From the NCBI RefSeq assembly GCF_056712565.1, contig NZ_CM160072.1: DNA of 64,000 bases; one strand, written 5' to 3'. The stretch's first letter is position 1. Each line of letters opens with the position of its first letter. The position numbers are program-made. Shown piece by piece: positions 53,501-62,500 of the stretch.

Positions 53501-56500
53501 CTGTTCCTGAACAGCTTCCCCCTACGGAAGATAATAAACAGCCTTCTTTTGATGTTCTTGATGATTGGGATGCGCCTTTGCCGTGGGAGACGGAAGAAAC
53601 ACCTGTTTCATCAAGTGAAAAGGTAGCTAATGATAATGAGGAGGATGTGTTAGAGAATTTTGCCTCTCTTATCTGCCGGCAGAAGAATACCAGAACAGCA
53701 GGGGCATCATTTATAGAATTTGCAAATTCACTAGCTTATAGACACGGGCTAAAACGACCAAATGGTATTGAGGCATATTTTTCTAAGCATTACCCAAATG
53801 TATACGAAGACTTTGATATTCCATTTTAATAAGGAGGGTTATGATTCAATATTTAGTAAAAAATCAAGTAGACAGAATTCAGTGTAATGACACAGGAAAA
53901 CGCATCTATGAAACGCTTGCTTTCCTATACAAAGGAAAGCCAACACCGCTAAAATATAGCGATGTGTTACATCGAGCAGGGTGCTCTGAAGATGGTTTAA
54001 AATTCTGGCTGAAACAGCTATCAAACTTCGGTGTTATTGAGATTAAAGAATTATCTTTCTCTACATTCAATCTCAAAAGACTAGATAAAGTAGAATTCAT
54101 CTATTCCACTCTCTAAAATCTCTCTATGTAATTAAAATATAAAAGGAAAACATTATTATGATAGTAGCTATGTATTGGTTATTGTTCTTTCTCACGTTAG
54201 AAACATATTTCGGGGTGTTTTCCTTTAAAAGAAAAGGAAAAATAAATAATGGCAAAAAGAAAAAACAACGTTGTTAAGAAAATCGGGGATTCAGCTTCTC
54301 TTCTAAGTAAACCTAAATCTATTCTAAGACGTAAAGACTTTAAAGAGCTAGTTACGCTCACCAAGCATAATAGCGCCCCTGGCGAATGGAAAACAGAGAT
54401 CATAGAACATTCTCCCTCTGTGCCTTGTGGAGATGAATATATCGCATTACAAGAAATCTTATCTTCAACACCTGGCGTATTCTGGAAACCTAGAAAAAGA
54501 AAAGAGTATATTGTTGATAGCTCTGATTTACGCAAATACCAGATTTTAGGATTTGAAGACTATAACCACTACGTTGGTTATCTCGCCACCAATGGCCTAA
54601 ATAATTTAGTTCCTGAATTCCAAATTTTAGATAATGCTGATTATGGAGACTTTTAATATGAACAAAAACACGTATGACACAATTTACTCACTAATTAATT
54701 ATTATGAGGATGATTACCTCCTGCCTTTAAACCGTGCTGAACTTGATGCATATAAAGAAAATACGCCAGCGGCATTAAATGAGGCGTTTAAACACTGGGA
54801 TTTAGCCCTTTCTGCCTTGGAGCACCTTTTTAAAAGAATAGAGATGCTCTGTAAGCGTGAGAACGCATACCTGACAGCCGATCAGATATGGGAGTTATCA
54901 AACTGGATAGAAGATATTGAATCTGATGTTCGCTATGTGGGAGATGGCCTTATCGAACTCGCTCAACGCTTAGGCGCTATCACAGAAGAATAAAAAAGCA
55001 ACAAAAAAGTTGTAAAATATCTTGACATTCCATCTATTGTATGTTAATATAATTATATGGGGTGATTATTTTTCCTTTATTGGTTCGATATTAAAAATTC
55101 TTCTTGTCGTTAAAGGGGAGTAAAATCTCCGCTCCCCGCTTCTCCTCCTTAAGTAAATACTGTGTCATTATTACCTCTTTCCTTTGTTATGCATACATCT
55201 TGGAGTATGCATAACATAGGGTAATTACATAGGTACAAGTTAATAAAAGGCGGCTTTAAATGCTGCCTTTTATTTTGCCCGTTATGCAACTTAAAAGTTG
55301 TATTTCTTACTTTAAACAAGGTAACAAGGTTTATATAAATGTTGTTCTTAAACGATAAAGAGCAAATCATCAAATATAAAGATGAAATGCTGAAAATTAA
55401 TCCACAAATTACCGAAATGGTAGCTAAATACGCTGGGTGTTCTGTCGAGGAAGTAGAAAGATGTGTTGAAAAATATTTTTCTCCTTCTTCTCCGTCTACA
55501 CCTTCCCTTAATGAATTAATCAAATTAAAAGCTAAGGAGATTACTAAATGATTATTGATTTAGACGCTCTATTTCCAGTCAGAAAGACTTTCATAGATCT
55601 GGTAAGTTATTGTACTGATCCGTTTGCCTCTGTAGAAAACAAGGTTTTTGCTTCTCTTCCTGCTGATGTTGAATGCGGAGACTTGATCACCAGCACTGGC
55701 GCTAAATATGAATCAGGAGATGATATCTATGTTGTTATGAGTGAATTTGTAACGGCTGGAGACAACAAGCCTGTAGATGTTTTACGTAGCAATGCTGGGC
55801 TTGTATGCATCAAAGCTGATGCGCTGAATGCTGTAAGTGAAGCAGCAAAAACAGCATTAATTAAAAAAGGCTTTCAGCTTGAAGGGTTCCACTCTGTTTT
55901 CACTTCTTAATAAAAGGAATAATAATAAATGATTCTAGGTAATGATTACGTTGATTTAGCTCCGCTGTTCTCTGCGCATAGCACTAGAAACTATCTGCTT
56001 TCTACTCTGGATTTTACGGATTCTGTAGGGGTTACATCTCATAAAGTAGCTGTTTCCCAGCTTGTCGAAAGCAACGAATCTCTCTTTAACAAAGAGACAA
56101 GCCGTTTTAGTTCTGAACACAACGTCACTAAGCGAGAACAAGGTAAAGAATGGCTGATTCAAATCCCTTACTTCCTGCGTGAAGATGTGATTAGACCTTC
56201 TGATGTTCAAGGCAAACGTAAACCAGGTACTGATTTCCAGGAAACACTCACTGATATTTATGCTGACTATGTTGCTAAACACCACGTAGCGTATCAGCGT
56301 ACAAAAGAGAGCGTATTGGCTGCTTCTCTGTTTAGTGGTCGCACCTATACCCGGAAAACTGATGATGTTCTTATCGAGTGGGGCAAGCTGTTTAACGTAT
56401 CAGCTATGAAAGCCACTGTGAACGCTTCCAGCACTGACACCACGAAGATTTTTAAAGAATTTGATCAGATTGCTACTGACATTATCGAAAAAGCACAAAG

Positions 56501-59500: not shown

Positions 59501-62500
59501 AAGAGTGCAGGGGTGAACGGGAACAGAAGATCATTAGCTATAGACTACTTGAATCAGATTATGGACAGTAGACAGCCTTTTCTTCTTGTTACAGAAAATA
59601 AAACTTTTGAGAACGTTGTTTTAACAGGCATCGAATACACAGAAGAGGCAAGCGAATCCCTGGTATTTGATCTTAGCTTTGAGCAAATAAGATTAGTGTC
59701 TTATGGCACAGTAAACACTGTAGCTATCAAAACACAGCCATCTAAGAACATCGGGGCTAATATGAAAAAACGTGTTAACACTGAAAAATCAAGTAGTGAA
59801 GGTGAAGACACTATTACTCCTGCCTTTAAACAGGAATAGCCGTAAATGCCTCTAAAACGCTCTGTAACGATGTAATTATAAAAGAGGCTCAATCTATGTT
59901 GAAGCCTCTTTATTGCGTCTATGGCGTTGTTTTACGCCTTAAATTTGATTTTTTATTGATTGATAAGCCTTTCTCTATTTCAGGGTAGCGTAGAAGCTCA
60001 ATATATTTTTTAAGCTCTACTGGAGAAGCTGCATTCTTGCTATATGTGCGGAATGTCTCTGTATTGCCGCGTGTATGGCCCAGGAGAAGGGCGATCCTGT
60101 CTTCTGGAATTTGATTTCGATCAAGAAGCTGTGCTACTCCGTGTCTCAGAGAATGAAACACCTTCCTTTCTGTTCCCTTTTCCCCTAAAGCCTTTCGTTT
60201 AGCTCTTGTAAATCTCTGCGTGTGCCACGTGGAACGTTTACCATCAGCACGCTCTGTAATGCTGGCGTGATAGAACAAAAAGCCATTGTGAGGCTTTTCA
60301 CGCAGCGACAACACCAACGGAGTGATAAGGCTATGTACAGGCACAACACGTGCCGCAGCTTTCGTCTTTCCCTGTGTGATTTCAAAACACAGCACACCTT
60401 CGATCTCTTTCACATCGTCTATTGTGAGACTTGCTATCTCATTGATCCGCATACCTGTATAAGCACCGATAAGACACAAAGCCATCATTTCTTTGTTTTC
60501 TGCTGAATTACCGGAAAATACTTGCAACACCTGCAATAGCTCTTTGTTAGAAAATGCCTCGTAGCTCTCTCTACTTTGTGCCACATCAAGCCTATGCCCT
60601 CGCCAGGGGGAGAGCGCCCTTTCTGGCGCATCGTGGTAACGTGATGAAGCTAACTCCCATAGCTGGGCCATTGGGCTGATATAATTTGCAATTGATTGTT
60701 GTGAAAGGGTTTTTTGCATGTGTTCAATCCAGCCTGTAACAGTGGTGCGGCTCACATCTTGCAATGCAATATCAGGCTTTTTACGGTAGGAGAGAAACAT
60801 CTCTACCGCTTTTCTTGCCTTAGCTAAAGTGGCTGGCTTCTTCTTCGTGCTGTTAATTGTCAGGTAGATTTCAAGAATTTTAAGCAATGACGGACACGAA
60901 GACGCTGTATCTTGCATTCTGGTAGCTGTTTTGGCGTATTTAGCCTTACTGCGTAACAGCTCCAGCGTGTTCTCTATTGTGCTGTTTACAGGGGCGACAC
61001 TCTCCCGTAGACAATGGTACTCATCTGCAATCTGATCACGCTTTCTACGTGCAACACGAAGGTTACTTGTATGTAGACTCCTGACAAACGTCCTTTTTCC
61101 TTCAAAAAAGGGCTGCATATACACAGGCAGCGTGATCCGTAAATAGTAGTTACCGTAAGAATCACAGATTATGTATTGATTGGGCTTGTATCTCATAAAC
61201 TCCCCGGCTAAAGTGTCGGAGCGTTTGTAATGTGAAAATTGATTGTAACGCATAGAAAATGATAATTTTTTCTATAAGATTCAATCAATTAGTAATGGTC
61301 GTAGGTGATGGCATTAACACGAGATTAATCGAGTGTTTTACTCCTATTATCGGCACCATTCTAACGTCTCCCCAAGTCTACTCAAGTATTTAAAAACCTC
61401 TTATAATCAGTATATTAATGCCCCTTTTAGTCTTTTGACGTCTATTTAAGTACCCCAAACTCTACAAGCAATTGAGGGGATTTGCTGTTCAGTTTAGTGG
61501 AGATACCCCCAAGTGAAACTCAATGCCCGTCAAATAGACACTGCCAAGCCAAAAGAGAAGGCTTACAAGTTGGCTGATGGTGGTGGTCTGTACCTCCTGG
61601 TAAAACCTGGTGGAGGAGAATATTGGCGTCTCAAGTATCGTGTAGCTGGTAAAGAGAAGCTGTTAGCACTAGGTGTGTATCCTGAGGTCACCTTAGCTGA
61701 TGCTCCTGCAAAACTTGAAGAAGCTAAAAGAGGTATCTCTGGGGGAATCGATCTGATGGAAGTGAAGCGAGAGGAAAAGATTGCCCGGGAAACGCAGTTA
61801 AACAACACCTTCAAAGATATTGCCCTTGAGTGGCACAGTAACAAATTATAATCACAATAATAGTGTATATAATTATACATTGTATGCTTGGTAATCATAT
61901 AATGATAAAAGCTTCCGATAATCAGTATGAGATTTGTCCTTAAACTCCTGGACATGCTTTTCTAAATCTTCCAATGGTATATGTCCATTTATACAAATAA
62001 AATTCTAGTGATAAATACCTTCAGGTATGATTAGACAACATCTTTATTCGATGGGGGTTAATCTATATTTGATATCTTTCTTTTAAATAACAACGCCATT
62101 AAAAACGCTTTGTTTAATGACGTTTTTTTATTGTTTCCTATATAAAGCCTAACCAGCATAAACATTGGTGGCTCTTATGCTCATTGTAATTAAATGAGAG
62201 TGTGATTAATGTCTTTATATATTCTGGTAGTTATTCTCTCCAGAAGAATACATTGTAAGAAGATGACTGTTAGTATGTTTTAACATCAATTAACATTAAG
62301 GTTTGATAATAATTTTTTGTTGGCGAGTTCAAATGTTTTCATTTCATCATCTGATAGCCCGCTCCAGATTTTCTTTAGCATTACATTTTGAGTGTTTATT
62401 AGTTTTTGAGCAAGTGTAACTCCGTCAGGGGTTAAGCAAATACTTTTGCTTCGACGATCGTTTTTATTATTAATTCTTTTGGCAATATTCTTTTTTTCTA

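Follow-up and report, generated by a model that had tools for sequence, protein, structure and literature searches.

We report that a 12.7-kb island of low G+C (guanine plus cytosine) content, flanked by attachment (att) sites at the tRNA-Thr gene thrW of an Escherichia coli-type chromosome, encodes a major capsid protein, a tape measure and a tail-tube initiator related to those of lytic phages, and no packaging machinery. The island occupies positions 48590-61359 of the window analysed here, a stretch of 64,000 nucleotides (nt) from contig NZ_CM160072.1 (NCBI RefSeq assembly GCF_056712565.1), and its virion genes lie in a block at 55339-59839. We favour, with moderate confidence, the reading that the island represents a family of satellites of virulent phi92-like myoviruses of the Stephanstirmvirinae, because it combines functions for integration and excision, a cassette-like replicon, a size range of 12-14 kb, a selected minimal set of virion genes and a countermeasure on the phage side. 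We are rather more confident that the island and Stephanstirmvirinae phages are antagonists, and that this antagonism includes a phage nuclease directed at the island's origin.

Virion proteins encoded by the island

Every open reading frame (ORF) that an earlier, sequence-only reading had called in the block was recovered with the same boundaries, and its impression that the block looked structural was borne out, in that the 342-, 609- and 237-amino-acid (aa) products correspond by homology to a capsid protein, a tape measure and a tube initiator. The 342-aa protein (55929-56957, + strand) matched the Pfam family PF03864 (Phage_cap_E) at 6.4e-13 over residues 18-341 (model positions 13-329 of 329) and the major head protein family phrog_29 at 1e-13. 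BLASTP aligned it with phi92 gp124 over its full length (22% identity, 9e-10), and gp124 from the solved phi92 capsid (PDB 21uy_N) aligns with the island protein over residues 5-333. The full-length profile match and the match to a solved member place it in the lambda gpE-type, HK97-fold capsid family; judged from its sequence, it is a lambda-E-type major capsid protein and a distant homologue of gp124. The best match of known structure was PDB 9zbi_A, a 344-aa 'Capsid protein' (8e-10, residues 28-217), which outscored gp124.

The two tail proteins are closer to their phage counterparts. The 609-aa protein (57263-59092, +) contains the Q/A/K-rich stretch (residues ~55-165) and the Gly/Ala-rich hydrophobic segment GGSGNSATMGALLFGGATAAAGVMAVS (~172-198) that had first made it look like a tape measure. 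It matched phrog_16051 at 2.6e-53, phi92 gp134 at 1e-34 in BLASTP (27% identity across residues 150-609) and PDB 21vq_V at 2.7e-38; its residues 1-66 are 53% identical to gp134, and the extreme N-terminus is near-identical. Its tblastn matches were almost all Stephanstirmvirinae-type genomes (130-153 kb); the tape measure of the candidate helper is 659 aa long. The 237-aa protein (59126-59839, +) matched the Pfam domain Dit_like at 2.6e-29 and is 61% identical to phi92 gp135; among solved proteins it matched PDB 21vq_N (1.1e-78), the tube initiator 9cuy_K and Pam3 gp17. The two proteins are accordingly homologous to gp134 and gp135, the myovirus tape measure and tube initiator, as these are modelled in the solved structure, and on this similarity we identify the 609-aa protein as a homologue of the phi92 tape measure and the 237-aa protein as a tail-tube initiator. 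At the DNA level the structural genes are ~70% identical to those of Stephanstirmvirinae-type phages. Five phage records labelled 'Campylobacter phage' (MG065639, MG065645, MG065650, MG065656 and MG065689; ~146-151 kb) gave tape-measure and initiator scores equal to those of E. coli Stephanstirmvirinae; these host labels are probably wrong or reflect contamination.

Gene order in the block parallels that of phi92, where the decoration protein gp123 and the capsid protein gp124 are followed, further on, by gp133 (75 aa), gp134 and gp135; the phi92 genes in between (neck, sheath, tube, chaperone) are absent from the island, as is the baseplate. Neither ORF size nor searches of PHROG, NCBIfam and Pfam revealed a terminase, portal or protease between the att repeats, in agreement with the sequence-only reading. 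The structural genes are clearly under purifying selection and their ORFs are intact: the ratio of nonsynonymous to synonymous substitution rates (dN/dS) ranges from 0.02 to 0.17 (0.10 for the capsid gene, 0.09 for the initiator gene) and, for the tape measure, from 0.05 to 0.26. A first, ungapped estimate for the tape measure was inflated by indels, and pairs of equal length were used instead. In two E. coli islands from IMG/VR uncultivated virus genomes (L018 and L021) the tape-measure match spans residues 278-609 only and no thrW att repeat was found, which points to a tape measure with a different N-terminal half, another insertion site, or both.

Three small genes complete the block. Directly before the capsid gene lies that of a 120-aa protein (55548-55910, +; dN/dS 0.17), which is conserved in E. 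coli, Citrobacter, Klebsiella, Kluyvera and Serratia and holds the position of the phi92 decoration protein gp123 relative to the capsid gene. We regard it as a candidate head-decoration protein, tentatively so because it showed no BLASTP similarity to gp123, its AlphaFold2 (AF2) model was poor (predicted local distance difference test, pLDDT, 61) and its best two Foldseek matches, 123-124-aa Sf14 capsid chains, were sub-threshold (E 0.05-0.1); a PDB sequence search also returned no match. The block opens with the gene of a 70-aa protein (55339-55551, +; dN/dS 0.07), for which searches returned close homologues only, in E. coli and Shigella; Klebsiella and Serratia islands have 66-74-aa proteins at this position, and from gene position alone we would guess at a role in scaffolding or assembly.

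The most constrained gene of the block encodes a 67-aa protein (57045-57248, +; dN/dS 0.02) and keeps its place in the Klebsiella (39% identity) and Serratia islands. Its AF2 model is a bundle of three helices (pLDDT 68), and relatives give weak Pfam matches to helix-turn-helix (HTH) families, so that it is possibly an HTH protein. Foldseek returned nothing for it, and it has no similarity to phi92 gp133, whose position its gene occupies. Roles as a tape-measure chaperone or a small-terminase-like protein were considered and neither was supported. In our representative library the helical domain recurs 3-5 times in the long proteins P0156 (1591 aa), P0160 (1099 aa), P0164 and P0165, although for P0156 no discrete matched stretch was reported; given this recurrence, the domain may be a reusable binding module.

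The island and its relatives

Integration has occurred at the 3' end of thrW (48538-48613), which forms attL (48590-48614, +; GTTCGACTCCTATTATCGGCACCAT); attR lies at 61335-61359 (+; GTTTTACTCCTATTATCGGCACCAT). The two 25-nt direct repeats (repeat family D14) are identical at 23 of 25 positions. The same pair flanks the island in other strains, with att-to-att distances of 12.0-13.4 kb in E. coli, and the Klebsiella island measures 13.9 kb and is located at another tRNA. Next to attR, the tyrosine integrase gene (59919-61253, - strand; maximal ORF 444 aa, 425 aa in RefSeq) matched phrog_1 at 4.7e-33, is 98-99% conserved across islands and has a dN/dS of 0.06. At the opposite end, a 179-aa serine recombinase of the resolvase/invertase type (49820-50359, -; phrog_125 DNA invertase, 6e-55) is 97-98% conserved among other islands; its place is taken in Klebsiella and Serratia relatives by a small tyrosine recombinase. 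Probably the serine recombinase resolves multimers or serves as an accessory recombinase. Read from left to right, the island consists of this recombinase, ~2.3 kb of non-coding DNA with iterons, a strong sigma-70 promoter, small early genes, the Rep gene, three small ORFs, another promoter and its long leader, the structural block and the integrase.

E. coli GPEC548 carries an annotated island identical to this one, and the APEC strain BEN2908 also has the full island. Of 5,426 complete E. coli genomes, at least 246 contain 80% or more of the island and 1,099 contain parts of it; depending on the part queried, roughly 5-20% carry the island or its replicon backbone. Homologues that are 37-96% identical to the capsid protein were found in E. 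coli, Citrobacter, Klebsiella, Enterobacter, Cronobacter and Serratia. The loci of Klebsiella and Serratia have in common a core of genes for proteins of ~70 aa and ~120 aa, the capsid protein, a protein of ~65 aa and a tape measure of 616-629 aa, beside an integrase; no terminase, portal or protease was found in them, their replication genes and att sites differ from those of the E. coli island, and they lack the tube initiator, which is present in the E. coli type only. In phage records no capsid protein was closer than ~26% identity. Homologues above 37% identity occurred solely in small islands without head or packaging genes, and never in complete prophages or phage records; the possibility, raised against itself by the sequence-only reading, that the relatives of these proteins sit only in complete prophages beside standard head genes therefore does not apply.

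A sister island in E. coli ATCC 8739 (locus L006; NZ_CP043852.1, 2470-11466) shares the recombinase, the non-coding blocks, T2 iterons (see below), the small early genes and Rep. In place of the structural block there is a GmrSD restriction gene, together with an integrase that differs from that of the window's island. Its insertion site is the thiM TPP riboswitch, of which a copy lies at either end. Since GmrSD is found on the same backbone, the structural block appears to be one of several cargo modules on a common chassis.

A cassette-like replicon

Conservation across the island family is uneven. Among 16 island loci, identity is mostly 94-100% for the structural genes and the integrase, the tape measure reaching as low as 87%, and it falls to 35-61% for Rep. 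The Rep-like origin-binding protein of the window (217 aa; 53176-53829, +) has HTH_36 and replication-initiator-O-like matches and is built of a winged-HTH domain of type 1 (T1) at the N-terminus and, at the C-terminus, a domain confined to the island family, which was absent from all phage records searched. At least five unrelated N-terminal types (T1-T5) occur on this one common C-terminal domain, and the iteron family covaries with the N-terminal type (14 loci), with one family per type in islands that have a minimal cluster. Strain MLI104K2, for instance, carries an island of type T2. In a comparison of three islands the iteron cluster was the only rebuilt segment, the surrounding non-coding DNA being ~97% conserved.

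The window's island carries a composite cluster with all five iteron families (50975-51585; repeat families D1, D4, D5, D9 and D16), which we take as the putative origin. The T4 array lies at 51006-51078, T3 at 51079-51116 and 51355-51393, T2 at 51134-51180 and T5 at 51197-51293, while the T1 array (CCCACAGAATTCTGTTA), cognate to the window's Rep, spans 51392-51530 with one further copy at 51115. AT-rich stretches are found at 51294-51350 and 51530-51585, and the cognate T1 array adjoins the latter.

Exchange with lytic phages and a putative origin-directed nuclease

When the early region was compared with 50,697 phage records by blastn, only a few Stephanstirmvirinae matched. Positions 52946-53529 of the window are 86-98% identical at the DNA level to phages muut, inny, Mt1B1_P17 and BI-EHEC, and on this evidence of sequence the island has exchanged DNA with lytic Stephanstirmvirinae phages. 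Part of the shared segment is a gene for a 55-aa protein (52957-53124, +), whose product is 100% identical to muut_153 and whose DNA is 96-98% identical to muut and inny; other islands carry a second allele (42-46% identity; compare 3012-3179 of locus L003). By eye, and with no search in support, the protein resembles a ribbon-helix-helix regulator.

In muut, the copy of the 55-aa gene directly precedes the gene of a nuclease-like protein. This protein, muut_154, and its relatives (321-367 aa) consist of two HTH_36-type domains and a C-terminal nuclease-like domain. The C-terminus matched the endonuclease family phrog_681 at 2e-18, gave weak Pfam matches to MUG113 (1.2e-3) and T5orf172 (0.16), both of the GIY-YIG clan, and can be aligned with proteins of T5-like and other phages that are annotated as homing endonucleases. 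Four of the five Rep N-terminal types (T1, T2, T4 and T5) recur in the phage nucleases at 81-100% identity. The first nuclease domain corresponds to T1 in Mt1B1_P17 and BI-EHEC (85% and 93%, respectively), to T2 (iteron TACCCCTATCAAnnnTGATA) in muut (100% over 121 residues) and to T4 (iteron GTAACGAWAnGTTACA) in inny (90%); the second corresponds to T5 (iteron CCTAGGAARTGRKTTCC) in all four phages (81-92%). No phage nuclease counterpart was found for T3 (iteron GGTAGGTCAYWGTGARCTA). Among the three types counted in the 5,426 complete E. coli genomes, T3, the only one without a phage counterpart, was the commonest (240 genomes, compared with 171 for T1 and 62 for T2, the search mode behind the T2 count being more sensitive than that used for T1 and T3).

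The full-length nuclease gene is present in only ~6 of more than 100 related phage records, which makes it an accessory rather than a core phage function; phi92, alia, VEcB and the ESCO phages are among those without it. None of the five iteron families was found in the complete 146-kb genome of muut (≤2 mismatches for the 16-21-nt motifs), and an exact search of IMG/VR for the T5 iteron returned islands only; the targets of the nuclease's DNA-binding domains would therefore lie in the islands and not in the phage. A precedent exists in phage ICP1, whose Odn protein fuses a domain resembling PLE RepA (42% identity) to a T5orf172 nuclease, was found by experiment to cut PLE origins and has been proposed as a driver of PLE replicon swapping (PMC8263062). 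The phage protein described here has the same composition, a satellite Rep domain joined to a nuclease domain of the GIY-YIG clan, and by analogy with Odn we infer that it would cut the island's origin. As a matter of speculation, the phage copy of the 55-aa island regulator might be a second means of silencing the island.

Transcription signals and other features

Two sigma-70 promoters serve the island. The early promoter (52611-52639, +; TTGACA-17-AATAAT with a TG, 11 of 12 positions) is invariant in three islands. The promoter of the structural operon (55022-55050, +) lies upstream of a ~290-nt leader that contains a hairpin at 55181-55220 and a terminator-like hairpin with a T-run at ~55250-55282 (inverted repeat I22), the whole from promoter to T-run spanning 55022-55282. 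The islands of E. coli, Klebsiella and Serratia all have a consensus-like sigma-70 promoter, a leader of 300-560 nt and a terminator-like hairpin before their structural genes (spans compared: 55022-55338 of the window, 8845-9408 of locus L007 and 8795-9360 of locus L010), and this layout suggests control by antitermination or a leader RNA; the leaders themselves were too divergent in sequence to be aligned across genera. A search for a helper-specific late promoter gave no distinct signal, since the phi92 structural genes and the island both use sigma-70-like promoters. The intrinsic terminator 3' of the capsid gene, which the sequence-only reading had taken as a possible mark of high expression, is real (56975-57010, +; stem GAGGCGTGGCGTG/CACGCTTCGCC followed by T8) and ranks first among the terminator-like sites of the range scanned (48.6-61.4 kb). 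Overall the island shows no excess of such sites, with 13 found and 10.6 expected by chance.

On either side of the iteron cluster lie two non-coding blocks with no ORF and no Rfam match. Block A (50360-50975) contains about a dozen ATTACAC motifs; block B (51585-52600) is ~1 kb long, richer in G+C and looks structured. In three islands with unlike cargo and Rep types both blocks are ~97% identical. Candidate contents are a pac site, a res site at which the neighbouring recombinase would act, and a structured or long non-coding RNA. The motif AAAACGCTCT(G/A)(T/A)AA occurs at 52341-52355 and 52500-52520, upstream of the early promoter (inverted-repeat families I1, I9 and I20), and a third, inverted copy lies at 59853-59867, between the initiator and integrase genes; it may be an operator. 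A 44-nt stretch at this motif is 86% identical to Klebsiella phage KPN4.

The first early gene encodes a 60-aa protein (52752-52934, +) with no family match, conserved at 70-91% in E. coli islands and 58% in Klebsiella. Between Rep and the structural operon are three genes for small proteins, again without family matches, of 91 aa (53841-54116), 135 aa (54249-54656) and 119 aa (54634-54993; 111 aa in RefSeq), all on the + strand and with dN/dS values of 0.27-0.37. For the island as a whole, NCBIfam gave nothing useful except the integrase, and the tRNA was the sole match in Rfam.

To the right of attR we found an N-terminal fragment of a P4-type integrase (61513-61851) and, by eye, a MarR-like regulator (62286-62810) and an Ag43-like autotransporter represented by its C-terminal part (62936-63931). 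These sequences (61513-63931) look like the remains of an older occupant of thrW displaced by the new island. The right flank is different in GPEC548, where the identical island is followed by a LysR fragment and pao genes. A second low-G+C stretch of the window (~19000-25000; G+C 0.37-0.44), with an unusually pronounced positive GC skew that reaches 0.31, has no connection with the island.

Discussion

From its genes alone the island is what a satellite is in general, a mobile element with an incomplete set of virion and packaging genes; dependence on a helper is implied. Two independent lines, the homology of the tail proteins and the exchange of Rep domains, identify the candidate helpers as virulent Stephanstirmvirinae myoviruses rather than temperate phages, and we propose the phi92-like Justusliebigvirus and Phapecoctavirus, with genomes of ~145-150 kb. 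According to the model that we favour, helper infection would trigger excision of the island, and Rep would fire its cognate iteron origin with phage or host replication proteins. The structural operon would then be expressed, possibly via read-through of the leader terminator, and the island capsid protein, with the 120- and 70-aa candidates for decoration and scaffolding, would build a shell for ~12-14 kb on the helper portal, which the helper terminase would fill. The island's own tape measure and tube initiator share conserved ends with the phage proteins and would seed polymerisation of tube and sheath on helper baseplates to yield a chimeric particle. Diversion of helper parts would lower phage yield; some phages would respond with a nuclease that two DNA-binding domains captured from Rep direct to the island origin, and islands may escape by a joint swap of the Rep N-terminal domain and the iterons. 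Whether all of this amounts to an undescribed satellite family of the Enterobacterales, one that, in a manner without known precedent, makes its own capsid shell, re-templates the helper's contractile tail with its own tape measure and, in E. coli, its own tube initiator, borrows portal, terminase, sheath, tube and baseplate and is engaged in an Odn-like arms race with phages that capture its Rep domains time and again, is in our judgement evenly balanced.

Several points weigh against this proposal. Transfer of the island and formation of particles are steps that we infer: in the capsid gene, T5 iteron and nuclease searches of IMG/VR the matches were almost only prophage-type calls from isolate genomes, and they therefore provide no evidence of packaging. 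It is uncertain whether the island capsid protein could use the helper's portal and scaffold, gp120 and gp122 in phi92, because it is only 22% identical to gp124, and no significant matches stand behind the decoration and scaffold roles of the 120- and 70-aa proteins. Why a satellite would need its own tape measure is unexplained, and the Klebsiella and Serratia islands do without the tube initiator. On the phage side, muut is the sole nuclease-carrying phage scanned in full for iterons, the Pfam matches of the nuclease domain are weak (1e-3 and 0.16), and the direction in which domains passed between phage and island is presumed. Given the GmrSD variant, the replicon backbone may also be the chassis of a defence island.

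This last point leads to the strongest rival. The sequence-only reading had offered a satellite, a tailocin fragment and a non-viral function such as defence; the evidence favours the first and lends no support to the second, while a purely defensive role remains a live rival that we nonetheless consider unlikely. Here the island would be an anti-phage element, non-transmissible or passed on vertically with occasional transfer, and would go unpackaged, its homologues of capsid protein, tape measure and initiator acting as dominant-negative assembly decoys. An initiator 61% identical to gp135 and a tape measure with a phage-like N-terminus are what a co-assembling poison subunit would need, a defence gene replaces the structural block on the same backbone in ATCC 8739, and the phage nuclease implies that the island harms the phage, which pure defence would explain as well. 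Neither a packaging signal (pac site) nor a small-terminase-like gene was identified in the island, a result that favours decoys and counts against the satellite. However, a capsid protein only 22% identical to that of the phage would be a poor co-assembler; accompanied as it is by two conserved partner genes, it more closely resembles a protein that forms a shell on its own. Nor does a decoy need a phage-inducible replicon, genus-specific tRNA integration sites or a narrow size of 12-14 kb, all hallmarks of satellites, and PADLOC found no known defence protein among ten island proteins. Interference would in any case be compatible with transfer, since known satellites (P4, PLE, PICI) do both.

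We think it improbable that the phage protein with two HTH domains and a nuclease domain instead acts on phage DNA, whether as a homing endonuclease or as a factor in phage replication or regulation, and that the islands captured its DNA-binding domains in order to sense or bind phage DNA. Target and direction of transfer would then be opposite to those of our model, and the structural block would still serve a satellite or a decoy. Domains of the T5orf172 and GIY-YIG type are typical of phage homing endonucleases, and which way the domains moved cannot be read from sequence identity by itself. Yet all five iteron families are found in islands beside an AT-rich stretch, where they covary with Rep type, whereas the muut genome is free of them and T5 iterons in IMG/VR are confined to islands; the rarity of the gene among related phages also sets it apart from core functions. 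Hardly any credence is due to a decayed prophage or tailocin fragment with virion genes kept by chance, a reading prompted by virion genes without packaging genes in a low-G+C island next to a tRNA: the same minimal set in the same order recurs in E. coli, Klebsiella and Serratia (capsid 37-96%) with intact ORFs and dN/dS of ~0.1, no copy contains a pseudogenised terminase, portal, sheath or baseplate, the island owns a replicon and att sites while phages of the donor type are virulent and non-integrating, and we rejected a decayed prophage on the conserved minimal set under purifying selection, and a tailocin or gene transfer agent on the absence of sheath, tube, baseplate and terminase.

If the island is a satellite, as we favour, it resembles several known systems and belongs to none of those compared. 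It shares with PLE a small integrated element set against a virulent myovirus, a modular Rep with an iteron origin and replicon swapping, and with PLE and Odn a phage weapon made of the island's Rep DNA-binding domain and a nuclease of the T5orf172/GIY-YIG type. The differences are as follows. PLE uses a large serine recombinase and a RepA_N-type Rep, and the island a tyrosine integrase and an HTH_36/O-like Rep; PLE remodels stolen ICP1 coat protein via TcaP, whereas the island brings its own capsid protein, tape measure and initiator; and the nuclease directed at the island has two tandem captured domains at 81-100% identity, in contrast to 42% for Odn. The host of PLE is Vibrio cholerae, and the island's hosts are Enterobacterales, with Stephanstirmvirinae as candidate helpers. 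No PLE-annotated match was returned by PHROG, NCBIfam or PADLOC.

An HK97-fold capsid protein of its own, in place of a remodelled helper capsid, likens the island to the cf-PICIs, which differ in encoding portal, protease, head-tail adaptor/connector and terminase and in having no tail genes, since they steal tails only (PMC10085698). The island lacks those head and packaging genes and carries two tail genes. It also differs from classical PICIs in having capsid and tail genes, and PHROG and NCBIfam gave no match to AlpA, primase or Rpp. Like P4, the island is an enterobacterial element of ~11-13 kb that has entered a tRNA site by means of a tyrosine integrase and has its own replication initiator; P4, in contrast, reshapes the capsid protein of its helper, which is temperate, and of P4-like genes only the integrase was found in PHROG and NCBIfam searches (no Sid, Psu, Delta, alpha, epsilon or AlpA). 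The PICMIs of Vibrionaceae are, like the island, small satellites of virulent phages, and have no capsid-related genes; MiniFlayer and MulchRoom of Streptomyces are satellites with their own encapsidation genes. We noticed no homology or common gene order between the island and either group. Full-text searches of an incomplete library turned up neither an E. coli satellite of phi92-like phages nor a satellite with a tape measure. To our knowledge, no described satellite has a tape measure plus a tube initiator.

There may be a technical reason for this. The PICI and cf-PICI models of SatelliteFinder treat tail genes as 'forbidden' (PMC10085698), and such elements are therefore overlooked; by excluding elements with tail genes by design, satellite finders would miss the class systematically.

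In summary, should the satellite reading prove true, E. coli, a host with well-developed genetics and large phage collections, would gain a tractable satellite of virulent phages, for which PLE and ICP1 have been the main model so far, and the island would exemplify a new hijacking strategy that combines its own capsid and tape measure with zero packaging genes. It would also provide a second, independent and much clearer case of phage nucleases built from the origin-binding domains of a parasite, suggesting a general rule. Stephanstirmvirinae (phi92-like, phAPEC8-like and ESCO phages) are used or have been proposed for therapy against pathogenic E. coli, and the island may limit these therapy phages or be spread by them.

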